Virus genome (UHGV): UHGV-0181014
Source: a virus
Direction: 5' to 3' (one strand)
DNA: 14,759 bases
Shown piece by piece: positions 1,640 to 14,601 of the stretch (positions are counted from its first letter, which is position 1; every line of letters begins with the position of its first letter). Both the position numbers and the translations under genes were made by a program. The notes beneath the pieces are model-generated. The model did no database searches. It saw nothing but the letters and a program-made list of their open reading frames with translations, and was not told the DNA's origin.

Positions 1640-2818
1640 CTAACTAGCTTTAATTTCTCCATGAGGAACTACGACCCAATCGATATGATTTTGGGTATAG
1701 ATCTTTGTTGATTTCGCATCACTATGTGCCATTCGTCCTTGCGGATCGATACCCTGCTGATCGAAAAGATGCGCTGCCAGCGCTCTAATTTCATGAAAGG
1801 TTGGTCTTTCGTCCATCGATAGATGGTCGCATAAACCTAGCTTGTCACGCGTAGCTGAAAATGACCGACTCAAATAGTCCGGTGCAACTTGACTAGGGTG
1901 TGAAACCTCTTTGCTGCGTTTAATCTGCCGTTCAGGGATCCTGTGAACGACAAACGGACTGGCCACATTATCTCGGCTATCGTCTATTATCCGTTTCAAC
2001 TCTTCCCCAATCGGGATTGCAACGTGAGATGCCTCTTTTTTTTGCACTTTCTGCCTGTGGATGTAGAGAGTCCCATAAATACCGTTTTCTGGTTGCGCTA
2101 ACCATACGCACCCGCAGATACCGTCTTTTGGCTCTCTTATGGAGTAACGGATCCGTGAGACCTCCAATCGTGCGTGTGTTGTCTGCAATGCCAAATCCAT
2201 AGCGGTTCGTAACCATGGTTCGGCTGCGCGCCTGATGGCTTTAAAGTTATCAAGTGAAAGGCGCTGGCGCTTCTTCTCTTCTGTCCTACGCATTTTTTTA
2301 CGGGTTGCCGGGTTATCGAACATTAGTGATTCATCGACCGCATAGGAAAATAATTTTTTAAGAAAGCTGACTTTCCTGTTTTGTACGTTTGCTGATGCTT
2401 CGGCATGGTAGTGGTTTATATAGGCGTTCACATGCTCCAGCTCAATATCGCAAGCTGGTATGTTGATGAAGAATTCTTTTACCCTCAGAGCATCGTTGTT
2501 CCAATCGTCGAGTGTATTCTGTGAAGGGCGCTCATTCTCAATCGCCCGCTCCATAATATGATCTACGTGTTCAGCAAATGGTTTTGCTTCCCCAGTTACA
2601 CCGCCAGATTCACGGACAAGTATTTCTACTGAAGGTACATTTTCAGGTCTCATTCTTAGGTTGTATTCACGGGCTATAGCGATCGCTACAGCCCTGTCTT
2701 TACCAATATTCTTTTTTTTCCCAGTTATGAGCGTAAATTTATAAACGCCGCGATCTTTATCGAATATTAGATATTCGGGTAGATGGCGGTATTCTCTTTT
2801 TCTTGGCCTGGCTGCCAT
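1640..2818 (-). CDS. int: Lambda-family tyrosine integrase
   Basis: 392-aa ORF. N-terminus MAARPRKREYRHLPEYLIF...GKDRAVAIAIAREYN parallels lambda Int arm-binding N-terminus (MGRRRSHERRDLPPNLYIR...GRDRRIAITEA). C-terminus PTFHEIRALAAHLF...HSDAKSTKIYTQ parallels lambda Int PPTFHELRSLSARLY...HKSDTMASQY with the catalytic tyrosine. Lies next to the tRNA-derived att core and is preceded by xis. Confidence 0.9.
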   Translation of the reverse strand: MAARPRKREYRHLPEYLIFDKDRGVYKFTLITGKKKNIGKDRAVAIAIAREYNLRMRPENVPSVEILVRESGGVTGEAKPFAEHVDHIMERAIENERPSQNTLDDWNNDALRVKEFFINIPACDIELEHVNAYINHYHAEASANVQNRKVSFLKKLFSYAVDESLMFDNPATRKKMRRTEEKKRQRLSLDNFKAIRRAAEPWLRTAMDLALQTTHARLEVSRIRYSIREPKDGICGCVWLAQPENGIYGTLYIHRQKVQKKEASHVAIPIGEELKRIIDDSRDNVASPFVVHRIPERQIKRSKEVSHPSQVAPDYLSRSFSATRDKLGLCDHLSMDERPTFHEIRALAAHLFDQQGIDPQGRMAHSDAKSTKIYTQNHIDWVVVPHGEIKAS

Positions 2819-3119: not shown

Positions 3120-4358
3120 TTACTTTTTCATCACCTTTTCAGCAACACCAGCAATTGCCTCAAGTCCATCAAACATTGCTGGTATATTATTTTCATTGTT
3201 TTGTATTGGACTAAAAATAAGAGCATCAAAAGAGTCTAAAACTTTCTCAATAGCAATGTTATTTTTTCTTCTATATTCAACATACCCATCAATGAAAGCA
3301 CATAAGCTGAGCCTTAGATCAATCTGCATAAGTTGAGTTCTTAAAGCCTTCGCTTCTAAATATGAAAGTCTGAAAAAATAAATAATTGCCATCTCAATAG
3401 TAATAAATGGGAATAGAATGAAGATCGCTGAATAATCTTTAGGATATAAATCAGGGAAAGAAAAATGGATTATTACAGCAATCACAGGAGCAATGAATAC
3501 AGTCCCAAATAAATTTTTATAATTCATTTCAGTTGTAGAAAGCTCTTTCTCTTTTTTTTCTTTTATTATGTTAAAACCAGAGCTTAACCCAACAAAATTA
3601 TACTCTGATTTTAAATTTCTCACACGCTCCTCTAGTGCCTTAATTTCATCCCTTGATTCATCCACGTATTTTAAATTAGCATCTGCTTCTAGTTTTCCAT
3701 CTACAATAGCTTTTTTAATGTCATTATAATTATCAGATATTAATGATATGGATGCTTTAGTGTCTTTGTTAATTTTATCAATAGCCAAATCTAAGTTGCT
3801 AGAAATTTCATCGAGAAACTTCCGTTTGTTTTCGTCGAGGTCTGATATAAAGTTTCTAGCATCAGTTAGTTTGTTACTGTTTAGTAACCACTTCATAAGT
3901 GAAATAGGTAGTTTGTCTCGAATCCATGAAAATTGGTATTTACCTTCATTATCCTTGAAAGTGTTTTCTAATAATGTCAATTTGCTGTCTGTGATAAAGT
4001 TAGGCGTGATAATGGAACGAGTGCCTGTCCAATAATAGTACTCGTACAATACTCTTAACAAGGTTGACAAAAAATCAATCTTGTCTTTCTTGTAATCGTC
4101 AACTTGAAATTCCATGTGCAACAATATATTGTCTTGATTAAAACCTGTATTCTCATCTAAATGTTGTGGGTTGTTATTTATTATTGATATAAAAGTCGAC
4201 CATGCTGAGTCCAATGTAGTATAGAATAAAGATATGCTATTATCTTTCTTTTTGGCGGATTTCTTGGACATTTCTTCAAACCTAATAAGATCTCTACTAA
4301 TTATAGTATTTGTTTCCTTTATTGAATTAAGTATTTTATTATCGCTATATAGTCCCAT
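3120..4358 (-). CDS. Hypothetical AT-rich membrane-anchored protein (412 aa, two predicted C-terminal TM helices); candidate abortive-infection or superinfection-exclusion cargo gene
   Basis: Uninterrupted 412-codon ORF in a segment of roughly 30 percent GC, against ~50 percent or more in flanking phage genes. Hydrophobic stretches FGTVFIAPVIAVIIHFSF and AIFILFPFITIEMAIIYFF near the C-terminus; coiled-coil-like segment ESRDEIKALEERVRNLKSEY. AAAAAGG RBS before the ATG at 4358. No recognisable catalytic motif. Confidence 0.7.
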   Translation of the reverse strand: MGLYSDNKILNSIKETNTIISRDLIRFEEMSKKSAKKKDNSISLFYTTLDSAWSTFISIINNNPQHLDENTGFNQDNILLHMEFQVDDYKKDKIDFLSTLLRVLYEYYYWTGTRSIITPNFITDSKLTLLENTFKDNEGKYQFSWIRDKLPISLMKWLLNSNKLTDARNFISDLDENKRKFLDEISSNLDLAIDKINKDTKASISLISDNYNDIKKAIVDGKLEADANLKYVDESRDEIKALEERVRNLKSEYNFVGLSSGFNIIKEKKEKELSTTEMNYKNLFGTVFIAPVIAVIIHFSFPDLYPKDYSAIFILFPFITIEMAIIYFFRLSYLEAKALRTQLMQIDLRLSLCAFIDGYVEYRRKNNIAIEKVLDSFDALIFSPIQNNENNIPAMFDGLEAIAGVAEKVMKK

Positions 4359-4475: not shown

Positions 4476-5303
4476 TTATGGTTTAAATATTCCGATGAAA
4501 GTGTCCACTGATTCACCCTCGAACTTGCTGATCAGCAAATTGCGGAATTCGTTGGCGATCTCTTCTTCCTGGGCTTCAAGTTGGACGATGCGCAGAACAA
4601 AGCAGGGTTCATCGCTGGTCAGCAGGCTGTTACGCAAACTAAAGCGGCGTTCGCCCATACCTTCATACGGCACACATTTGAACTCGAACGCCACAGGCAT
4701 TACGTCTTTGCTGCTTGCTTCAACGCTTTGCATCAGGGATTTTTTACCAGCGAAATCACCAGTTTCATGGTCCTGCTGGGTTGCTTGCTGGATAGTGATA
4801 CGACGTACAGCCTGAGCTGCCTGGGAAATCTGCATCGTATTGCCATCAGCATCAAACGCCAGCAGGTAATCGCTCCAGTCTTCCAGCCATTCAGCGATTT
4901 GCTTTTGCTTCAGACGTTGACCGTCGATCTGCAGTAGCGCACGGAACGGGGCGGTTTTCTTTAGGGTGATTGAAGCAACGTTATCGGCGTGACCGGGATT
5001 ATCCAGGGTGCCGATGTTGAACACTGAACGAGCGGTCATGTTGTCAGCATCAATGAAGCAACGGGCTGGATCGCTGGCGCTGGCGTAACCTTTAGAATAA
5101 CGTGCGAAGTCGTCAATACTGGTTGTGGTCATTGCGCCACGGAAGCGGAAACGCTCCAGAGAAAAGCGCTCAAGGCTTTCAACGCCAGTACCTTCTGGCA
5201 ATAATGCGGTCGGGCAAGCCAGGTCCTGAATATCATTCAGGTGATAACCGGAAAGAACCAGGTCTTTGACCTGCTTGAAGGTACCGCTGTCTAACTGAGA
5301 CAT
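4476..5303 (-). CDS. Conserved prophage early-left protein, possibly YfdQ-like (DUF2303 family)
   Basis: 275-aa ORF with TAAGGAA RBS. Size and N-terminus (MSQLD...) match my recollection of E. coli CPS-53 YfdQ (274 aa); family assignment is from memory, not a search. Confidence 0.7.
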   Translation of the reverse strand: MSQLDSGTFKQVKDLVLSGYHLNDIQDLACPTALLPEGTGVESLERFSLERFRFRGAMTTTSIDDFARYSKGYASASDPARCFIDADNMTARSVFNIGTLDNPGHADNVASITLKKTAPFRALLQIDGQRLKQKQIAEWLEDWSDYLLAFDADGNTMQISQAAQAVRRITIQQATQQDHETGDFAGKKSLMQSVEASSKDVMPVAFEFKCVPYEGMGERRFSLRNSLLTSDEPCFVLRIVQLEAQEEEIANEFRNLLISKFEGESVDTFIGIFKP

Positions 5304-5359: not shown

Positions 5360-5731
5360 TCACTGAGCCGCTTTAAGCTTTCCATCCACCGCGCCAGTGA
5401 TCCCGAACAGCTGACCCTGATCTTCCTGCAGGATGGTGAGCTTCCCGCCTTTGTTGACCCACATCGGGGTTTCGGTTGTGTCCTCTTCGGATGCTTTACC
5501 ACGCGGTGTTGGGGTGCTGTAGTTCAGCTTGTGCTTGATCTTGACGCGCTTCTCTTCAACGGAATTACCCATGCGCTCAAAATCAAATGTGAGGACTACT
5601 TTGCCTTTGTTGCCGTTGTTCAGAACGCCAAGTGCGGTGGTATTAAGTGCTGCCGCGATTTTGTTCATGAACACGCCGGCATCCAGTTCGCCAAGAAAAT
5701 CTGGCACTACGGTCATGCGGTCATTACTCAT
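5360..5731 (-). CDS. Conserved small prophage protein (possibly YfdP-like), 124 aa
   Basis: Six-frame ORF 5360-5818 begins with TTG. The first ATG (5729-5731) has a strong GAGGG RBS 6 nt upstream, giving MSNDRMTVVPDFL.... It lies immediately upstream of, and co-oriented with, the YfdQ-like gene. Confidence 0.6.
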   Translation of the reverse strand: MSNDRMTVVPDFLGELDAGVFMNKIAAALNTTALGVLNNGNKGKVVLTFDFERMGNSVEEKRVKIKHKLNYSTPTPRGKASEEDTTETPMWVNKGGKLTILQEDQGQLFGITGAVDGKLKAAQ

Positions 5732-6236
5732 GGTTTTACCCTCGTTATGGCGGCTGCCACCGCCGAACTTTCTCCATACACAACAGAGAAGGGCACCTGC
5801 ATTTGTCGGCGACTGCAATCGCCATCCTCTTGCCCTGGTGGATTGGGTTATGAGCCCGTCGCCCGGTGATGCCCTTTTCTGTTGTGCCCTGAAAAAGGCT
5901 GGCGGTTACCGGACAAATGGGAAAACACCGGGCCGCCAGAACAGGGAGTTACTTGTTATTGCTTTGGCCTGCTTTTAACCACATCAGGCGCGGTGGTAGG
6001 TATCTTCGGGCGGGGTGCTAAGGGGGTGATTAGCCCTTGACCTTAACACTCCTGCTGGTTTTGGTATTCCTGGTTTGGGTATCGCCACCAGCTATAGGAA
6101 TTTGACTACGAGCTGCGGTTAATCAGGCCGCGCCTCTGTTACCCCTCCCGAAGACACCTGTCAGCGAATCATCCGGTTATTCATATGCCACCGGCGGCTA
6201 CTTCGTGGGCGTCCTGCCTGTTCGCTGTTGATGAAT

Positions 6237-6321: not shown

Positions 6322-6948
6322 TTAAAGCTCGTACTGAACGCCTTTGACAACGCCGATGATCAGGCAATTACCGTTAATTGAAATGTTTGGATAGCGTGGA
6401 TTTAAGGGAACTAAGAACTTTTGAGGCCCGTCGATGACAAGTTTTTTTACAGTAGCCTCGTTTGTCCCATCAAGCCTGGCTACGACTATCTTTCCATGAA
6501 GTGGCTCTGCATCTGGATCTACTATGACTGTTGCCCCTTCAGGGATTGTCGGGAGGCCATTAGGGTTTGTCATCGAATCACCTTTAACCTCCAATGCAAA
6601 GGAGCTATCCCCTATGCGGAGTGATGTCTCTATCCACTTATCTACTTCGCTGAAAACTTCTGCTGCTTTACATTCTGTAAACTGTCCAGCCTGAACCCAG
6701 GATATCACCGGAATCCTTCGCATCTTGGTTATCAGATTGCCTTCAAATTCAGTGCCATAAAGTATGTAATCAATTGATGTGTTGAAATACTTTGCAAGTT
6801 TCGCAAGTGACTCGCCTCCTGGCACATTAACGTCTTTTTCCCAATACCCAACCGCCACATCACTAACACCGCAGAACTTACCCAGTTCTTTCTGCGAGGT
6901 TTTGGTTATGCGCCTGAGAGCTTTGATGCGCTGACCGACAGTTTCCAT
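6322..6948 (-). CDS. CI-like prophage repressor (HTH_XRE N-terminal domain plus S24 LexA-like autopeptidase domain)
   Basis: 208-aa ORF. N-terminal HTH (QKELGKFCGVSDVAVGYWEKDVNVP), a probable Ala-Gly cleavage site (VQAGQF), and the S24 Ser/Lys dyad context (GDSM ... VKKL). Divergent from a Cro-like gene with operator palindromes between them. Confidence 0.85.
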   Translation of the reverse strand: METVGQRIKALRRITKTSQKELGKFCGVSDVAVGYWEKDVNVPGGESLAKLAKYFNTSIDYILYGTEFEGNLITKMRRIPVISWVQAGQFTECKAAEVFSEVDKWIETSLRIGDSSFALEVKGDSMTNPNGLPTIPEGATVIVDPDAEPLHGKIVVARLDGTNEATVKKLVIDGPQKFLVPLNPRYPNISINGNCLIIGVVKGVQYEL

Positions 6949-7050: not shown

Positions 7051-7278
7051 ATGACAACCGATGATATTGAAAACTACTTCGGCAGTACTGAGAAGGTTGC
7101 CGAATTTTTTGGAATCACAAGCGAGGCTGTTTACCAGTGGCGTAATAGAACTGGTCGCCTTATCCCAAAAGGGCGTGCAGCTGAAGCAGCATATCGAACC
7201 GGGGGGAAATTGGTTTTTCATCCCGACCTTTACGAAAAGCGTAGCGATGCTTCAGTAAAACTCAAACCACAGGAATAA
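7051..7278 (+). CDS. Cro-like small HTH regulator (Cro/YdaS-like)
   Basis: 75-aa ORF divergent from the repressor, strong AGGAGG RBS. Motif AEFFGITSEAVYQWRNRTGRLIP fits the Cro/YdaS-type HTH pattern. Confidence 0.75.
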   Translation: MTTDDIENYFGSTEKVAEFFGITSEAVYQWRNRTGRLIPKGRAAEAAYRTGGKLVFHPDLYEKRSDASVKLKPQE

Positions 7279-7288
7279 GGGGGGAGCT

Positions 7289-7840
7289 GTGGGTAACGAA
7301 CCTATTTGGAAAGTCGAACGTCAGCCAGCCTGGCTGGTGGCGGCGATAAAAAAAACGATCACCGATCTTCCTGGTGGTTATGCCGAGGCGGCGGAATGGT
7401 TGGGCGTGACAGAGAACGCATTGTTCAACCGCCTTCGTGTTGACGGCGACCAAATCTTCCCGCTGGGCTGGGCAATGGTTTTACAACGTGCTGGTGGTTC
7501 AACTCATATCGCTGATGCCGTTGCGCGCCATTCTCAGGGCGTATTTGTACCGCTGGCAGATGTTGATGATCTGGATAACGCCGATATCAACCAGCGCCTG
7601 ATGGAATCAATCGAATGGATAGGCCGTCATTCTAATTTTGTACGTAAAGCCACGGCTGATGGGGTGATTGACGCAGAGGAGCGCGCTCAGATTGAGGAAA
7701 ACAGCTATCAGGTGATCGCGAAGTTCCAGGAGCACGTAGCACTTCTTTATCGAGTTTTTTGTGTCGCTGAAAAGAGTGACGCCCGCGAGTGTGCAGCTCC
7801 GGGCGCCTTGGCGAACAACTCTTCGAGTATGGAGAAATAA
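7289..7840 (+). CDS. CII-like phage regulatory protein (183 aa)
   Basis: GTG-initiated ORF directly after the Cro-like gene, the canonical cII position. Sequence such as AAEWLGVTENALFNRLR and size are consistent with the phage CII/CP76-type regulator family as I recall it. Function by position plus weak motif recall. Confidence 0.55.
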   Translation: MGNEPIWKVERQPAWLVAAIKKTITDLPGGYAEAAEWLGVTENALFNRLRVDGDQIFPLGWAMVLQRAGGSTHIADAVARHSQGVFVPLADVDDLDNADINQRLMESIEWIGRHSNFVRKATADGVIDAEERAQIEENSYQVIAKFQEHVALLYRVFCVAEKSDARECAAPGALANNSSSMEK

Positions 7841-8012: not shown

Positions 8013-8192
8013 GTGCGCGAACTTAACCGAAGGTTCAAAGACCACCGCGGAGTGTCTGTCCGTGTTATCCGCTGGGAGCCAGAAACACAGCGCGTTATCT
8101 ACCTGCGTGATGGCTACCCGCACGAATGCTTCAGCCCACTTGAGCATTTCAGGCAAAAGTTCAGGGAGATAACGGACGATCATGAGCACTAA
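8013..8192 (+). CDS. Putative small protein (59 aa, GTG start) overlapping the start of the replication gene
   Basis: Frame opens after TAA at 7992-7994. GTG at 8013 preceded by GGAGG (7996-8000, 12-nt spacing). The translation VRELNRRFKDHRGVSVRVIRWEPETQRVIYLRDGYPHECFSPLEHFRQKFREITDDHEH looks protein-like, whereas the overlapping 127-aa frame (7789-8172) is Ser/Ala/Thr/Arg-rich in this interval. It ends 10 nt into the next gene. Confidence 0.3.
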   Translation: MRELNRRFKDHRGVSVRVIRWEPETQRVIYLRDGYPHECFSPLEHFRQKFREITDDHEH

Positions 8193-9039
8193 ATTAACCG
8201 GCTACGTATGGGATGGTTGCGCGGCGTCGGGCATGAAGTTGTCTAGTGTCGCGATCATGGCGCGCCTTGCTGATTTCAGCAGCGATGAGGGGGTGTGCTG
8301 GCCGTCTATTGAAACTATCGCTCGCCAGCTTGGCGCAGGGACGAGCACTATCAGAACGGCAATCGCTAAGCTTGAAAAAGATGGCTGGCTCACGCGTACA
8401 CAGCGCCGTAATGGTAACCGTAATGCGTCGAACGTGTACCGCCTGAATGTGGCGAAACTTCAGGCTGCCGCATTTTCTCAACTGTCAGATTCTGACGCGT
8501 CAAAACCTGACGCATCAAATTTTGACACCTCAAAAACTGACCCGTCGAAATCTGGCAAAAACGGCGGTTTTGACCCGTCAGAATCTGGCGGGGATCCGTC
8601 AGTAAAATCAAAACAAGATCCACAAGTAACTTCAAAACCCTCTTGTCCGGTTGCGGCGCAACCAGACCCTGAAGTCGTGATTACTGACCAGGCAATTTTG
8701 GTTCTGACCCATTTGAACCAGATAAGCGGATCCCGGTATCAGAAATCAAAAACATCCCTGGAGAACATCCGTGCCCGACTGCGTGAGGGATACAGCGTTG
8801 CAGACCTGCAACTTGTTATCGACCTGAAGCATGAACACTGGCACGAGAACGACGAGCAGTACCAGTACATGCGCCCGGAAACGCTGTTCGGCCCGAAGAA
8901 ATTCGAGAGCTATCTGCAAAGCGCTACCCGCTGGGAGCAGAAGGGACGGCCTAAACGCGCTGACTGGGGAGCGAAAAAGCGCGATGTGATGGCTTTTGGT
9001 CCGGTTGAAACAACGATTCCAGAGGGGTTCAGAGGATGA
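8182..9039 (+). CDS. Replication initiator (O-like): N-terminal winged-helix/HTH domain, acidic Ser/Asp linker, conserved phage C-terminal domain
   Basis: 285-aa ORF. N-terminal LSSVAIMARLADFSSDEGVCWPSIETIARQLGAGTSTIRTAIAKLEKDGWL is a typical HTH replication-protein fold signature. The C-terminal ILVLTHLNQISGSRYQ...LVIDLKHEHWHENDEQYQYMRPETLFGPKKFESYL resembles the conserved phage C-terminal domain of replication proteins. Contains tandem iterons; the true start may be 8182 or the internal ATG at 8233. Confidence 0.75.
   Translation: MSTKLTGYVWDGCAASGMKLSSVAIMARLADFSSDEGVCWPSIETIARQLGAGTSTIRTAIAKLEKDGWLTRTQRRNGNRNASNVYRLNVAKLQAAAFSQLSDSDASKPDASNFDTSKTDPSKSGKNGGFDPSESGGDPSVKSKQDPQVTSKPSCPVAAQPDPEVVITDQAILVLTHLNQISGSRYQKSKTSLENIRARLREGYSVADLQLVIDLKHEHWHENDEQYQYMRPETLFGPKKFESYLQSATRWEQKGRPKRADWGAKKRDVMAFGPVETTIPEGFRG
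8478..8640. repeat. Origin-like iteron array inside the replication gene, followed by an A-rich tract
   Basis: Tandem 15-bp units: TGACGCGTCAAAACC (8493-8507), TGACGCATCAAATTT (8508-8522), TGACACCTCAAAAAC (8523-8537), TGACCCGTCGAAATC (8538-8552), TGACCCGTCAGAATC (8571-8585), plus degenerate copies at 8478-8492 and 8586-8600. TGACGCGTCA is itself palindromic. The array is followed by an A-rich stretch (8601-8640), analogous to ori-lambda within gene O. Confidence 0.6.
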
Positions 9040-9917
9040 CGTTAAACAAATATTGCCAGGCGCTGGCGGCACTGCGCAGCAAGCCAGCCCACGAACTGAA
9101 AGAGGTTGGCGATCAGTGGCGGACACCGGATCTGCTTTTTTGGGGTATCAACGCGCTATTTGGTCCATTAGTTCTGGACTTGTTTGCTGACGACGACAAC
9201 GCGAAGTGCCCGGCATGGTACACCGCCGAAGATAACGCGCTGACACAGAACTGGTCTGAACGTCTGGATGAACTGGGCGGCGCGGCTTTTGCCAATCCTC
9301 CATATAGCCGCTCCCAGTATCACGACAAGCAGGCGATCACGGGTATGACACACATCATGAATCACACCATGGACATGCGTGAAAGAGGTGGTCGCTATAT
9401 TTACCTGGTGAAGTCTGCCACAAGTGAAACATGGTGGCCGGAAGATGCCGATCACATCATGTTTATTCGTGGTCGTATTGGGTTCGATCTGCCTGTGTGG
9501 TTTGTACCTGCTGACGAAAAACAGAAACCCACCAGCGCGTTTTTTGCCGGTGCCATAGCTGTATTCGATAAGTCGTGGCGGGGTGAGCAGTTCAGCTATA
9601 TCAACCGCACAGAACTGGAGGAAAAAGGGCGGGCATTTATGGCTTTGGCTCAATTCGCCGTTGGTAAAGAGCAAACAATTGCAATGCAGGCAGCCAGGGA
9701 ACCAGCAGCAACACCGGAAACTGAGTCACGAATCTGGCCTCTCGAGGTTGGTCTGGTGTTTAACCAGGTGGAAGGCGTTGATGTATTGAGCGAGGCCCAG
9801 CAGAACAAACTGAAAGCCAACATCAATCAACTCTGGCTGGAACGAACGGCCACCAGCGAAATTATCACAATTGCGCGTGGTCTTGTTGGCAGCATGCAGG
9901 GGGCAACCCATGCGTGA
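9036..9917 (+). CDS. Phage-type DNA N6-adenine methyltransferase (Dam-like, orphan)
   Basis: 293-aa ORF with the catalytic NPPY motif (FANPPYS) and the N-terminal QWRTPDLLF...LVLDLFADDDNAKCPAWYT signature characteristic of phage N6-adenine methyltransferases. ATGA start/stop overlap with the replication gene. Confidence 0.85.
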   Translation: MTLNKYCQALAALRSKPAHELKEVGDQWRTPDLLFWGINALFGPLVLDLFADDDNAKCPAWYTAEDNALTQNWSERLDELGGAAFANPPYSRSQYHDKQAITGMTHIMNHTMDMRERGGRYIYLVKSATSETWWPEDADHIMFIRGRIGFDLPVWFVPADEKQKPTSAFFAGAIAVFDKSWRGEQFSYINRTELEEKGRAFMALAQFAVGKEQTIAMQAAREPAATPETESRIWPLEVGLVFNQVEGVDVLSEAQQNKLKANINQLWLERTATSEIITIARGLVGSMQGATHA

Positions 9918-11907
9918 GATTATCGTTGATAACTTTGCTGGTGGCGGTGGTGCATCAACGGGTATTGAACTGGCGATCGGACGCAGCGTGGATATTGCGA
10001 TCAACCACGACGAAAACGCCATTGCGATGCACAAGACGAACCACCCTGACACACTGCATTACTGTGAATCCGTATTTGACGTGGATCCGGTAGCCGCCAC
10101 CGGCGGCAATCCTGTTGGCCTGGCATGGTTTAGCCCGGACTGCCGACACTTCTCAAAGGCCAAAGGCGCAAAGCCTGTCAAAAAAGAGATACGCGGTCTG
10201 GCCTGGATTGTTCTGCGTTGGGCACTGGCTAAGCGACCGCGCGTGATGATGCTGGAGAACGTGGAAGAGTTCAAAACGTGGGGACCGTTAATTGACATCC
10301 CGCCTAAACCTGATTTGCCGGAAGCCCTTATGGCGGATTTTATTGGCCCGGTTTACCCTGGAAATAGTCGCCCAGACCCTGCCCGCACTGGAGAAACATT
10401 CAATGCATTTGTCGGCATGCTGTCCACTGGTATTCCTGCTGACCACCCGGCACTGTCAGAGGTTTGTGAGTTTCTGTCTATTGAAAGAGGTAGCGAGCAG
10501 GCGCAACAGCTGGTGGATGGGCTTGGATATGATGTTGATTATCGCGAACTGCGCGCGTGTGATTACGGAGCACCGACGATCCGCAAACGTTTCTTCATGG
10601 TTATGCGCTGCGATGGTTTCCCTATTCAGTGGCCTGCTGTTACCCATGGGGATCCTAAGTCTCTGGAGGTGCAGAGCGGCAGGCTGATGCCATGGCGTAC
10701 CGCTGCGGAATGTATCGACTGGAATGTTCCGGCCCTGTCCATCTTCGACCGCAAAAAACCATTGGCTGAAAATACGCTCAAACGCATCGCTCGTGGTATC
10801 CAGCGGTTTGTGATCGAGAGCGCGTCGCCGTTCATCGTTAAGTGCAACCACACGACGACCAAAGGGAAATACGACTGTTTCCGTGGTCAGGCGCTGGGCG
10901 AGCCTTTGCAGACCATTACGAAAACCCATGGCTACGCGATTGCCGTCCCACACCTGACAAAGTTCCGTACTGGCGCAACCGGGCAGCCCGTTACCGAACC
11001 CGTCCCGACGGTAACCGCTGGCACATCAAAACGTCCAGGTGGGAACGGGCATGCACTCGGGATTGTTGAGGCTGCACTGACGCCATTCCTGGCGGGTAAC
11101 GGTGGTAGTGAATACCAGGCGAAACCGCGCCCGCTGGATAAACCTGCTCATACCATTCTGAAGCAATCCCGCGCCTGTCTTGTTGCGCCAGTGATAGCCC
11201 GCCAGTTTGGGGCCAGCGTCGGCCACCGGGCAGACGAACCGAGCGCAACCATCACCGCTGGTGGTGGCGGTAAATCTCAACTGGTAACGCCTACGCTGAT
11301 CCAGATGGGTTATGGCGAACGACCTGGACAAGAACCGCGTGTGCTGCGGCTGGATAACCCGCTGGGGACCGTTACTGCAGGTGGAAATAAATTCGCGACG
11401 GTGACCGCGTTCCTGGCTAAACACTACGGCGGTAACTATACGGGACCGGGTGTCAGTATGGATGAACCCGCGCACTCAGTGACCACTGTCGACCATCATG
11501 CAGTAGTTGCCTCTCATCTGGTGAAACTGCGTGGAACATGCCGCGACGGGCAACGCCTTGATGTGCCAATGCCAACAATCACTGCTGGTGGCCAACACGT
11601 GGGTGAGGTACGCACATTTCTCGAGACGTATTGCGGGGAAAGTGACGATGAATGGCTGGTAACGATCGATGGGGTTAAATACCAGATCGTTGATATCGGA
11701 ATGCGCATGTTGCAGCCGCATGAACTCTACAAAGCGCAGGGCTTCCCGGATGGTTACGTTATTGATCAGGACTACCGTGGAAATCGCTATGCAAAAGATA
11801 AGCAGGTAGCCCGCTGCGGTAATGCGGTACCACCACCATTCGCCAGGGCGCTGGTGGAGGCAAATCTTCCGGAACTGTGTGCAGTGCAACAGCAGGAGGT
11901 GGCATGA
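9910..11907 (+). CDS. DNA cytosine-5 methyltransferase (large, 665 aa) with an expanded, internally repeated variable region
   Basis: Motif I FAGGGG (DNFAGGGGAS), catalytic Cys context SPDCRHFS, motif VI LENV, motif VIII IRKRFFMV, motif X GNAVPPP near the C-terminus. ATG at 9910 preceded by CAGGGGG and overlapping the Dam-like stop by 8 nt. The ~300-aa region between motifs VIII and X contains about seven repeats of a P-x-T-[IV]-T-A-G-G-like module. Confidence 0.85.
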   Translation: MREIIVDNFAGGGGASTGIELAIGRSVDIAINHDENAIAMHKTNHPDTLHYCESVFDVDPVAATGGNPVGLAWFSPDCRHFSKAKGAKPVKKEIRGLAWIVLRWALAKRPRVMMLENVEEFKTWGPLIDIPPKPDLPEALMADFIGPVYPGNSRPDPARTGETFNAFVGMLSTGIPADHPALSEVCEFLSIERGSEQAQQLVDGLGYDVDYRELRACDYGAPTIRKRFFMVMRCDGFPIQWPAVTHGDPKSLEVQSGRLMPWRTAAECIDWNVPALSIFDRKKPLAENTLKRIARGIQRFVIESASPFIVKCNHTTTKGKYDCFRGQALGEPLQTITKTHGYAIAVPHLTKFRTGATGQPVTEPVPTVTAGTSKRPGGNGHALGIVEAALTPFLAGNGGSEYQAKPRPLDKPAHTILKQSRACLVAPVIARQFGASVGHRADEPSATITAGGGGKSQLVTPTLIQMGYGERPGQEPRVLRLDNPLGTVTAGGNKFATVTAFLAKHYGGNYTGPGVSMDEPAHSVTTVDHHAVVASHLVKLRGTCRDGQRLDVPMPTITAGGQHVGEVRTFLETYCGESDDEWLVTIDGVKYQIVDIGMRMLQPHELYKAQGFPDGYVIDQDYRGNRYAKDKQVARCGNAVPPPFARALVEANLPELCAVQQQEVA

Positions 11908-12290
11908 AACTTGTGCTCCCGTTCCCTCCAAGCGTGAACACGTACTGGCGCGCCCCTAATAAGGGGCCGCTGGCCGGTCGTCACCTCATTAGCGCTGATG
12001 GCCGTAAATACCAGAGCGCTGCCTGCGTGGCGATCATTGAGCAATTACGACGTCTCCCGAAGCCTTCGACTGAATTAGCAGCGGTAGAAATCACTCTGTA
12101 CCCGCCGGATGCGCGCCGCCGGGATATCGATAATTACAACAAAGCCCTGTTTGACGCGCTGACGCATGCGGGTGTCTGGGAAGACGACAGCCAGATTAAG
12201 CGCATGCTGGTGGAATGGGGACCCGTTGTGCCGAAAGGTCGGGTAGAGATAACGATCAGCAGATATGAACCGGCGGGTGCAGCCGCCTGA
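11904..12290 (+). CDS. rusA: RusA-like Holliday junction resolvase
   Basis: ATG at 11904 with AGGAGGTGG RBS, overlapping the methyltransferase stop (ATGA). LPFPPSVNTYWR and RRRDIDNYNKALFDALTHAGVWEDDSQI closely parallel E. coli RusA ([40 protein letters not shown]). Confidence 0.85.
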   Translation: MKLVLPFPPSVNTYWRAPNKGPLAGRHLISADGRKYQSAACVAIIEQLRRLPKPSTELAAVEITLYPPDARRRDIDNYNKALFDALTHAGVWEDDSQIKRMLVEWGPVVPKGRVEITISRYEPAGAAA

Positions 12291-12303
12291 TATGGAGAAA
12301 AGT

Positions 12304-12990
12304 ATGAGCCAGTTAATCGTGAATGGTGTTGTAACAATGTCCAGCCGTGATATTGCGGATCTGGTTCAGAGTAAACACAGTGACGTGAAACGTTCGGCTG
12401 AGCGTCTTGTTGCTGCGGGAATTTTAACCGCGCCGTTGGCGCAGTTCGATTTTGAGCATAACGGTAATGTGTACCAGGAGTATCGTTTTAACAAACGCGA
12501 ATCTCTGGTGATTGTTGCCAGACTTTCACCTGAATTTACCGCCGCGGTTGTCGATCGCTGGCAGGAACTGGAAGAAGGGCAGAGTGTCAGTGTTCCCCGC
12601 TCATTGCCGGAAGCGCTTCGCCTGGCTGCTGATTTAGCCGAGCAGAAAGAGCAACTGACCATCCAACTGGCAGCCGCGGCGCCAAAAGTGGAGTTTGTTG
12701 ATCGTTATTGCTCTGCAAAAGGCTCCATGTCATTCCGGCAGGTAGCCAAATTGCTCAACGCAAAAGAAACTGAGTTTCGTCTGTTCCTTATCGAACGCAA
12801 TATCCTGTATCGCCTCGGCGGCACACTTACCCCCATGGCGCAGCACATTTCCGCGGGAAGATTTGAAGTTAAGACCGGAACATCGAGCACATCCAATCAC
12901 GCATTCAGCCAGACGCGTTTCACTGCCAAGGGAGTACGCTGGATTGGTGGTTTGTGGGCTGAACATATTGCGGGGGGGCAGGCGGCGTGA
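12304..12990 (+). CDS. Antirepressor-type protein (Rha-family N-terminal domain plus KilA-C/ANT C-terminal domain)
   Basis: ATG at 12304 preceded by GGAGAAAAG. N-terminus LIVNGVVTMSSRDIADLVQSKHSDVKRSAERL fits the Rha regulatory-protein pattern. C-terminus FRQVAKLLNAKETEFRLFLIERNILYR...GVRWIGGLWAEHIAG fits the KilA-C antirepressor domain as recalled. Confidence 0.65.
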   Translation: MSQLIVNGVVTMSSRDIADLVQSKHSDVKRSAERLVAAGILTAPLAQFDFEHNGNVYQEYRFNKRESLVIVARLSPEFTAAVVDRWQELEEGQSVSVPRSLPEALRLAADLAEQKEQLTIQLAAAAPKVEFVDRYCSAKGSMSFRQVAKLLNAKETEFRLFLIERNILYRLGGTLTPMAQHISAGRFEVKTGTSSTSNHAFSQTRFTAKGVRWIGGLWAEHIAGGQAA

Positions 12991-13982
12991 GGGCTTTGTT
13001 AACTCCTGAAGTCGCCCATCGCATGGGGATTGTGTTATTTCGTCCCGGCGCGGAACTGATGCACCTCTTCATGCGCGGTCGCGTTCTTCTCGAACCTGAA
13101 CCAGAAGAAATGGCGTCATTCAGTACAGGGGCTGTTCCCGCAGCCATTCAGCCGCTGGCTGATGATCCTGTAATGCGGCAGGTATTCGAGAATGAACGGG
13201 TTATTCAGCGTGCCGGCGGGATTTCTTCCCTTGAGCAATGGCTGAGTTCTCGGTTTGAATGCCAGTGGCCACATTCAACGTGGCACGACAAGAACTTCAC
13301 AACAATGCGGCACCCACCAGGAAGCATTCGCCTGTGCTGGCATTGCGATCACACTTTGTCGGGGCAGCATACCGAACAGCTTGCAGGTATAGCGGCCGGA
13401 AACCTGGTATCCTGGATTCTGGAAGTCATTCGGCGTGATTCTGGTTTTCCCGAGTCGCATATCCTGACGCTTCCGGAACTGTGCTGGTGGATGGTCAGAA
13501 ACGACCTGGCTGATGTTATTCCGGAAAGCGTTGCGCACAAAGGGCTGCGCCTTCCGGATGAGAAGATCCGCTCTGTCATGAGGGAAAGCGACATAGTGCC
13601 TTCCTCGTCAGCAACCAGACTCGTGCAGGAGAAGGCGAAGAAGATCCTCACGCTCTCTGTTGATCCTGAGTCGCCAGAGTCTTTTATGCTCAGGCCAAAA
13701 CGTCGCCGCTGGATAAATGAGACGTACACCCGCTGGGTTAAAACACAACCCTGTGAGTGTTGCCGACGGCCAGCAGATGATCCGCACCATATCGTAGGGC
13801 ACGGTATGGGGGGGACAGCAACAAAAGCCCATGACCTCTTCGTGATCCCTCTGTGCAGAGAGTGCCACGACGAGTTACACGCCGATGTACCAGCATTCGA
13901 GCAGAGGCATGGTACGCAGCTTGAGTTGCTACTGCGTTTTATGGATCGGGCGCTGGCGATCGGCGTAATTGCGAAAGCTTAA
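12987..13982 (+). CDS. DUF968/YdfU-like nin-region protein with C-terminal HNH-like Cys/His motif
   Basis: 331-aa ORF with GTG start overlapping the preceding stop (GTGA). C-terminal CECCRRPADDPHHIVGHGMGG...CRECHDELH is a zinc-binding HNH-like arrangement. Position and size match prophage YdfU-type proteins as I recall them. Confidence 0.65.
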   Translation: MRALLTPEVAHRMGIVLFRPGAELMHLFMRGRVLLEPEPEEMASFSTGAVPAAIQPLADDPVMRQVFENERVIQRAGGISSLEQWLSSRFECQWPHSTWHDKNFTTMRHPPGSIRLCWHCDHTLSGQHTEQLAGIAAGNLVSWILEVIRRDSGFPESHILTLPELCWWMVRNDLADVIPESVAHKGLRLPDEKIRSVMRESDIVPSSSATRLVQEKAKKILTLSVDPESPESFMLRPKRRRWINETYTRWVKTQPCECCRRPADDPHHIVGHGMGGTATKAHDLFVIPLCRECHDELHADVPAFEQRHGTQLELLLRFMDRALAIGVIAKA

Positions 13983-14001
13983 GCGTATGGAGAAGAACAG
14001 G

Positions 14002-14601
14002 ATGACACCACATCAACGCCGCAATCATTTTGAAGCACTGGGTAAAGCAGCATCTGCTCCGCGTAAAAGCTGGCTGGGTAAAAGCATTCTTCTGACGGGG
14101 ATCCAATCCGGATGGATTAAATCCCTGCTCACCACATGGGGCGAGGGTGTGGGAGGAAAAACTGCACCCCGTATGCCGCGGGGCCACGCCTGCTGGAATG
14201 TACTAAGAGGTCGTAACTGGTCAGATAAGGCACTGGACCGCTTCACTGCTGCGTTGAATCAGGCACGAGAAGAGGGATTCCGTGGACAGCAGGCAATGAA
14301 CAGGGCACATAGTATTCTGTGGCCGCAGTCACCTGCCAGTGTGATTGATGAAGCCCTGCATAATGATGATGTCGATTTTGTTGAGCAATGCGTGCTACAG
14401 GCACTGGATATAAACGATCCTGTTTATGTTGTTGGTCTTCAGTATTACACCACTCGAAAAAAAATCTCAGACATCACCCGGGAACTGCAGGTAATCGCGC
14501 CATGGCTGACTGATGGGGAGGCAAGAAAGCGCGTGCGCTGGTGCCTGGAAATATTCAGAGCGAAGACCTTTTTGGCAGCACGAAAACAGTTATCTGAATA
14601 A
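14002..14601 (+). CDS. Putative late-gene antiterminator (Q-like), assigned mainly by position
   Basis: ORF 13969-14601 begins with TTG. The ATG at 14002 has GGAG 9 nt upstream. It sits after the nin-like genes and immediately before a candidate late promoter. I do not recognise a lambda-Q zinc finger, so the assignment is positional and tentative. Confidence 0.4.
   Translation: MTPHQRRNHFEALGKAASAPRKSWLGKSILLTGIQSGWIKSLLTTWGEGVGGKTAPRMPRGHACWNVLRGRNWSDKALDRFTAALNQAREEGFRGQQAMNRAHSILWPQSPASVIDEALHNDDVDFVEQCVLQALDINDPVYVVGLQYYTTRKKISDITRELQVIAPWLTDGEARKRVRWCLEIFRAKTFLAARKQLSE

Follow-up and report, generated by a model that had tools for sequence, protein, structure and literature searches.

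A prophage-encoded C5-cytosine DNA methyltransferase whose variable region appears to be an array of seven separable recognition modules

The 14,759-nucleotide (nt) stretch of DNA analyzed here (UHGV virus genome UHGV-0181014; referred to as the window) carries a gene for a C5-cytosine DNA methyltransferase of 665 amino acids (aa), in which the conserved motifs VIII and X are separated by an exceptionally long variable region. The evidence supports the view that this region is an array of seven separable modules resembling target recognition domains (TRDs). With moderate confidence, we propose that the enzyme consists of one catalytic core and seven separable recognition cassettes and would methylate several unrelated sequences. 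This reading is preferred because single modules are gained and lost, the modules are of distinct types, the array is variable on a conserved core, and the modules resemble known TRD elements.

Seven diverged modules with the consensus (D/E)PxxT(I/V)T-loop-strand were found between motifs VIII and IX (Table 1). A first-pass annotation of the sequence had proposed about seven tandem TRD-like repeats and quoted seven peptides, all of which were present in a single frame at aa 331–571 (nt 10900–11622), in agreement with the positions it had given, and the number of repeats proved to be exactly seven by pattern and by profile. The pattern P..[ST][IVL][TL] occurred seven times with a spacing of 32–48 aa, against a mean of 0.14 and a maximum of 3 occurrences in 5000 shuffles of the protein. 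A profile derived from 391 modules found in distant relatives (consensus DADEPLHTVTAKGRHALVVAALLLKY) gave exactly seven matches of 8.6–26.4 bits, where the 99th percentile for shuffled proteins was 3.0 bits. Beyond the T-x-T, the loops differed sharply from module to module. The long variable region reported by the same annotation was also borne out, with ∼405 aa between motifs VIII and X; motifs VIII and IX are ∼365 aa apart, compared to ∼100 aa in M.HhaI and other monospecific enzymes of the M.HhaI/M.HaeIII type. Tandem Repeats Finder detected no DNA tandem repeat in the array, and such direct repeats as the DNA contained were short and weak. The repetition exists at the protein level only, which suggests that the copies are old and diverged. 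Recent duplication or slippage as the origin of the array was ruled out by these DNA-level searches. Each module of 32–48 aa looks like a unit made of a Thr-Leu (TL) loop plus a strand, which is less than the whole HhaI-type small domain of ∼80 aa.

Comparison with close homologues revealed that the modules come and go as units. These homologues, from Citrobacter, Klebsiella, Enterobacter, Salmonella, Kluyvera and E. coli, were 77–94% identical to the window protein and 580–717 aa long, and differed mainly by the presence or absence of single modules, with all breaks in register. For instance, relative P0001, 99.8% identical over shared columns, was devoid of aa 459–497 (the module 5 unit), which were also missing from P0043 and P0027. 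Relative P0060, 98% identical, was without both this unit and aa 394–428 (the module 3 unit), the latter also missing from P0096, and P0104 was without aa 345–389 (the module 2 unit). An extra module of 32 aa was found after aa 534 in P0026, P0041, and P0114, and a different allele of an extra module occupied the same place in P0094, P0079, and P0052. Clusters containing some of these length variants held more than 1000 member sequences, indicating that the variants are not rare broken copies, and the wide occurrence of single-module variants suggests that a viable protein can do without any single one of them. Other homologues showed a 17-aa indel (TLAVEDYDEERAQQVLEF) after aa 569.

A full phmmer search of 1.84 billion representatives returned 8319 clusters at E <1e-3, 2528 of them at E <1e-30. 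Among the 150 representatives listed, the number of modules ranged from 1 to 11, most often 5–7. In a set of 78 representatives the core was ∼63% identical to that of the window protein, and the best counterparts of its modules were mostly 25–55% identical. None of 199 proteins contained two modules belonging to one 70% cluster, and similarity within a protein reached at most ∼51%. Single-linkage clustering of the modules at 55% merged nearly everything and stricter thresholds were used instead; the clusters were dominated by 120 close homologues. Most distant relatives carry a conserved end module, PxxTxTxKDRxGLVTV, directly before motif IX. The window protein has ETYCGESDDEWLVTIDGVKYQIVDIG at this place (aa 572–598; nt 11623–11703, + strand), and the end module is missing from it and from its close relatives, so that no single module is universal in the family. 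A tblastn search found the family in 112 phage records, mostly of Pseudomonas, Vibrio, Aeromonas, Burkholderia, Rhizobium, Klebsiella, and Escherichia, and database names of its members are generic (“DNA cytosine methyltransferase”). One record labeled “Bacillus phage phi105” (KY197768.1, 29224–30543) gave a two-piece tblastn match with 48.8% identity and 99% query coverage in an unannotated stretch; this is either an odd host for a family of proteobacterial type, or a mislabeled or mis-assembled record.

When the repeats were compared to the TRDs of multispecific methyltransferases, as the first-pass annotation had suggested, the module profile landed on the TL element of M.Phi3TI and M.HhaI. 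For this comparison the profile was weighted and scanned without gaps, with shuffled sequences as controls. M.Phi3TI was taken from phage phi3T (KY030782, 105236–106549), and the relevant segment of the M.HhaI sequence used in the profile and hidden Markov model (HMM) scans, ERIYSTRGIAITLSAYGGG, was confirmed by alignment to the PDB. The variable region of M.Phi3TI holds the elements SPTLTTMGGGH and EPAFTVNTIDRHGVAI. The latter was the top window of the profile (12.6 bits, a score reached by 3 of 2000 shuffles), and the next-best window was the former, the other TL element. The top window in M.HhaI and M.Phi3TII also fell on the TL element, with scores that were not significant by themselves. 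The variable regions of the window protein and M.Phi3TI gave a local alignment score of 55 (30 ± 5 in shuffles), and module 6 (EPAHSVTTVDHHAVVA) was the best match to the second M.Phi3TI element, with a local score of 47. A HMMER alignment paired SPTLTTMGGG of M.Phi3TI with AITLSAYGGG of M.HhaI, a loop with a conserved Thr-Leu. The element shared by M.Phi3TI and the window protein (EPSATITAGGGG and EPAHSVTTVDHHAVVA in the latter) can be written as Pro-x-x-Thr-(Leu/Ile/Val). An HMM built from the seven window modules only detected nothing above shuffles in M.Phi3TI or M.HhaI, and hmmsearch with the 391-module HMM did not report the short M.Phi3TI elements.

Alternatively, the enzyme might have one specificity, or a relaxed to near-nonspecific activity, and the modules might be a structural beta-meander of loop-strand units that forms one large DNA-binding domain or clamp. 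In this reading, which we consider unlikely, at most one module, or the whole set jointly, would read DNA and the others would be pseudo-domains. A structural role would fit the model of the two-module relative P0235, where a confidently modeled strand comes after each module, including the counterpart of module 7, and such strands may pack into one sheet. It would also fit the relaxed specificity known for other phage orphan methylases, such as M.EcoGII (PMC12707154). However, parts of one domain would hardly be lost and gained as cleanly, one at a time, as they are between proteins 98–99.8% identical, some of them in the very large clusters mentioned above. The lack of same-type pairs within a protein and the range in module number are both predicted by distinct specificities, and the sharp divergence of the loops likewise argues against a purely structural repeat.

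Several observations nevertheless weigh against the cassette reading, the first three of them also favoring structural repeats. In the family consensus, a number of module types follow one another in a conserved order, as would fit a conserved multi-part DNA-binding domain. Each module has roughly half the length of a canonical small domain, and the modules are shorter than a canonical TRD. The AlphaFold2 model provided no confident structure for the array, with a predicted local distance difference test (pLDDT) score of only 31–71 over aa 310–590, and so lends no structural support to the docking of each module on the core. Single modules scanned against Pfam had no match. The resemblance to the M.Phi3TI and M.HhaI elements is short, and statistically clear for one M.Phi3TI element only, and hhalign of the family alignment against M.Phi3TI covered only the core motifs IV–VIII, at 21% identity and 92.7% probability. 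Some of the modules may be inactive pseudo-domains, as occur in the Bacillus phage enzymes. The cassette reading further assumes ordinary catalytic activity with Asp-Cys replacing Pro-Cys in motif IV, and the literature searched contained no methylation or methylome data for the window protein or members of its family.

The assignment of the window protein to the C5-cytosine DNA methyltransferases, also made in the first-pass annotation, is supported by family score and predicted fold. PF00145 matched the protein in three stretches with 73 bits (cut-off 22); the score against the NCBIfam dcm superfamily model was 53.5, below its cut-off of 100.65. No family- or module-specific model was found when the window protein was scanned against Pfam and NCBIfam and single modules against Pfam. 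Motifs I, VI, VIII, IX, and X follow in canonical linear order and are invariant or nearly invariant across 134 relatives, including T223, R225, and R227 of motif VIII; the motif IX stretch is covered by PF00145 profile positions 269–320. In an AlphaFold2 model built with the 134-sequence alignment, the core (∼aa 1–310 and 590–660) mostly had pLDDT >90, and its predicted fold is of the HhaI type, with a Rossmann-like large domain and a small domain. A Foldseek search of the PDB with this model retrieved cytosine methyltransferases only (3g7u, DNMT1/MET1, HaeIII, and HhaI; E 1e-11 to 1e-8). A variable insertion of ∼26 aa between motifs VI and VIII, modeled with low pLDDT, was retained in some close homologues and missing or replaced in others, a variation that is independent of the module array.

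The first-pass annotation had also pointed to an atypical context of the catalytic Cys, and the protein indeed has S-P-D-C in place of the usual Pro-Cys dipeptide. FSPDCRHFS of the window protein aligned with GGPPCQGFS of 3g7u (HMMER), so that an Asp precedes the catalytic Cys, and the Pro lies one position further off. This context is not peculiar to the gene, however. In the family alignment S75, P76, and C78 were invariant and D77 was at least 90% conserved, and S-P-D-C is, on this alignment, the invariant motif IV of a very large family and no local mutation. Six long relatives of 938–1113 aa (P0131, P0163, P0199, P0203, P0219, and P0194) each contain an intein of ∼345–360 aa that interrupts the protein precisely at the junction of the Asp and the catalytic Cys (WFSPD/CFPAGT...VVHN/CKHFS, slashes marking the junctions; aa 77/78 and nt 10138–10143 in the window), with Pfam Hint domains in all six and LAGLIDADG domains in three. 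The catalytic Cys is therefore the +1 extein residue in these relatives. Inteins usually occupy essential active-site positions, and their location at the Asp/Cys boundary fits Cys78 as the nucleophile. No paper on an intein at the S-P-D-C site was found in the literature searched.

It is very improbable that the S-P-D-C enzyme makes no plain 5-methylcytosine (5mC) in DNA, whether by being impaired, by transferring another group or by acting on another substrate, with the array serving that other role. One of the closest structures does belong to a naturally occurring C5-carboxymethyltransferase (8yf3), but motif I, ENV, the two arginines of motif VIII, motif IX and the GN of motif X are invariant, Cys78 is marked as essential by its invariance and its +1 position next to inteins, conservation over thousands of clusters argues for an active enzyme, and TRD-like modules fit the recognition of duplex DNA.

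TRD arrays in one polypeptide are the way in which temperate phages of Bacillus get round many restriction systems (PMC12707154; PMC8936443), and in the literature searched multi-TRD cytosine methylases were described for Bacillus phages only. The proposal of the first-pass annotation that the window enzyme may have a Bacillus-like tandem-TRD multispecificity finds partial support, in that the modules behave as separable cassettes in close relatives and their consensus matches the TL element; the enzyme is no orthologue of the Bacillus enzymes, as only the core aligns, at ∼21% identity. Like the window protein, these enzymes (M.SPRI, M.Phi3TI, M.Rho11sI, M.H2I, and M.SPBetaI; M.BssHII and M.phiBssHII) are phage-borne orphan C5 methylases with one core and an enlarged VIII–IX region of different tandem TRD units. 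Units are lost here in natural variants whose remaining sequence stays intact, and in the Bacillus enzymes by engineered deletions, as reportedly described by Trautner and colleagues in EMBO J in 1988 and 1996. The Bacillus phage enzymes have two to five specificities, a number exceeded by the seven modules found here and the up to 11 in the listed relatives. They differ further in having P-C in motif IV, no extra insertion between motifs VI and VIII and hosts among the Firmicutes rather than the Proteobacteria. Moreover, their specificities have been experimentally defined, whereas the multispecificity of the window protein is predicted. Because only the core aligns and motif IV differs, the window enzyme is, by these comparisons, a lineage separate from the Bacillus phage enzymes, and common descent with the M.SPRI/M.Phi3TI lineage was not recovered. 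No paper on the S-P-D-C family was found in the literature searched, which did not include REBASE, where an earlier characterization is possible.

Other known enzymes share fewer of these features. The M.HhaI/M.HaeIII-type monospecific enzymes (PF00145) have one recognition unit instead of seven and the P-C dipeptide, and usually a restriction enzyme partner. The best match among solved structures, by both sequence and Foldseek, was 3G7U, a putative methyltransferase of E. coli O157 prophage CP-933R. It is also prophage-encoded and has the same T-I-R-x-R motif VIII (TIRTR); unlike the window protein, it is 376 aa long, its only variable region is short and its motif IV is the canonical GPPC. 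The phage orphan adenine methylases M.EcoGII, of very relaxed specificity, and P1 Dmt follow the same logic of broad prophage-encoded methylation that is silent in the lysogen (PMC12707154). In contrast to the window protein, they perform N6-adenine chemistry, and their breadth comes from relaxed specificity without a cassette array.

The methylase gene lies inside one long ORF (9871–11907, + strand). The ATG at 9910 is almost certainly its true start, because an AGGGGG ribosome-binding site is located 5–6 nt upstream and the same start was used in independent gene calls, the identical 665-aa protein having been called from it on at least 24 metagenome contigs. The start of the gene overlaps by 8 nt the stop of a gene for a Dam-family N6-adenine methyltransferase, which suggests coupled translation of the adenine and cytosine methylases. 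The two genes also occur as a pair on other contigs and in phages that include Flotzy, Eeyore, and phiNP. The Dam domain (PF05869) covers aa 19–199 of the 293-aa protein, the C-terminal ∼90 aa being without a Pfam match, and one PHROG family labels the protein as “PAPS reductase.”

By its gene content, the window is a lambdoid prophage, in which the C5 methylase gene occupies the early-right (nin) region, downstream of cI, cro, cII, and the O-like gene and upstream of Q. No restriction enzyme or nuclease partner was found beside the methylase within the window, and the methylase is supported as a phage-encoded orphan. We also considered whether the methylase is fused to, or requires, a restriction partner, a TET enzyme or another hypermodification enzyme, none of which was present in the window. 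Elsewhere in the window are a 369-aa ORF left of the integrase gene, toward the window start (370–1479, + strand; PHROG 37794, no Pfam match), a 412-aa ORF (3120–4358, − strand; PHROG 9373, no Pfam match), a gene for a DUF2303 protein (4476–5303, − strand) and a 152-aa ORF (5360–5818, − strand; PHROG 204). Scans of the window for tRNAs and Rfam families were empty and thus gave no location for the attachment site.

Table 1. Features of the methyltransferase gene, its protein and the surrounding prophage, with positions in the window.
Feature	Position (nt)	Residues	Strand	Evidence or remark
C5-cytosine DNA methyltransferase gene, 665 aa	9910..11907, stop codon included		+	PF00145, Foldseek, contig gene calls
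Motif I, FAGGGG, S-adenosylmethionine (AdoMet) binding	9934..9951	aa 9	+	Nearly invariant in family alignment
Motif IV variant S-P-D-C, predicted catalytic Cys78	10132..10143	aa 75-78	+	Aligns to GPPC of 3g7u
Motif VI, ENV	10255..10263	aa 116	+	Invariant in family alignment
Variable insertion of ∼26 aa between motifs VI and VIII, LIDIPPKPDLPEALMADFIGPVYPGN	10288..10365	∼aa 127-152	+	Boundaries approximate
Motif VIII, TIRKRFFMV	10576..10602	aa 223	+	TxRxR replaces QxRxR
Module 1, EPLQTITKTHGYAIAVPHL	10900..10956	aa 331-349	+	Profile match aa 329-351, 14.2 bits
Module 2, EPVPTVTAGTSKRPGG	10996..11043	aa 363-378	+	8.6 bits; cassette unit aa 345-389, nt 10942-11076
Module 3, KPAHTILKQSRACLVAPV	11140..11193	aa 411-428	+	12.3 bits; cassette unit aa 394-428, nt 11089-11193
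Module 4, EPSATITAGGGGKSQLVTPTL	11236..11298	aa 443-463	+	11.7 bits; resembles Phi3TI SPTLTTMGGG and HhaI AITLSAYGGG
Module 5, NPLGTVTAGGNKFATVTAFL	11356..11415	aa 483-502	+	20.4 bits; cassette unit aa 459-497, nt 11284-11400
Module 6, EPAHSVTTVDHHAVVASHL	11464..11520	aa 519-537	+	26.4 bits
Module 7, VPMPTITAGGQHVGEVRTFL	11563..11622	aa 552-571	+	21.7 bits
Motif IX, RMLQPHELYKAQGFPDGY	11704..11757	QGFP at aa 610	+	Aligned to motif IX of DNMT1 and 3g7u
Motif X, GNAVPPP	11818..11838	aa 637	+	G637, N638, V640 invariant
Dam-family N6-adenine methyltransferase gene, 293 aa	9036..9917		+	PF05869, E 5.5e-45 (Pfam)
Integrase	1640-2818		−	
cI-type repressor	6322-6948		−	
cro	7051-7278			
cII-like	7289-7840			
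O-like replication gene	8182-9039			
RusA	11877-12290			
Ant	12265-12990			
DUF968/HNH	12987-13982			
Q-like antiterminator	13969-14601			

In the mechanism that we favor, each cassette would combine a (D/E)PxxT(I/V)T recognition loop with the beta-strand that comes after it, the unit that bears the TL loop in M.HhaI and in the Bacillus TRDs. Any one cassette, paired with the core, would recognize a single short DNA sequence, the cytosine of which would be flipped into the active site, and as a result several unrelated sequences would be methylated by one enzyme. The position of the gene in the early-right region suggests that it would be silent in the lysogen and transcribed from the early-right promoter upon induction. 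Together with the coupled Dam-family enzyme, the C5 enzyme may then pre-methylate progeny DNA against several host restriction systems. We infer the 5mC product, the activity of more than one cassette, the correspondence of one target to each cassette and the timing of expression.

More tentatively, the S-P-D-C family could be a second, independently evolved and much larger class of multispecific 5mC methyltransferases, in which up to ∼11 cassettes would be swapped by recombination to give customized multi-target anti-restriction methylomes. Such a class, if it exists, might comprise thousands of clusters, carried by temperate phages whose hosts are Enterobacteriaceae, Pseudomonas, Vibrio, Aeromonas, Burkholderia, and other Proteobacteria. 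The multi-cassette principle would not surprise a specialist; what is noteworthy is how large the family is, that one-cassette variants occur naturally and that the invariant motif IV is non-canonical. Owing to these variants, the assignment of a target to each module of 35–45 aa is directly testable, and the invariant S-P-D-C offers an opportunity to test how strict the requirement for the Pro-Cys dipeptide is. Should each cassette read its own sequence, the cassettes would represent a natural library of minimal (∼35–45 aa) DNA-sequence readers for C5 methylation, and a catalog of specificity modules, very small and transplantable, with which cytosine methyltransferases could be engineered.

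PacBio sequencing sees 5mC poorly, and an epigenetic layer of enterobacterial phages may for this reason have gone unseen. Prophages of this kind are common in Citrobacter, Klebsiella, Enterobacter, Salmonella, and E. coli. If every cassette has its own target, a single small prophage gene would shield phage DNA in advance from many restriction systems at once, and the same methylation would expose this DNA to 5mC-dependent nucleases such as McrBC.

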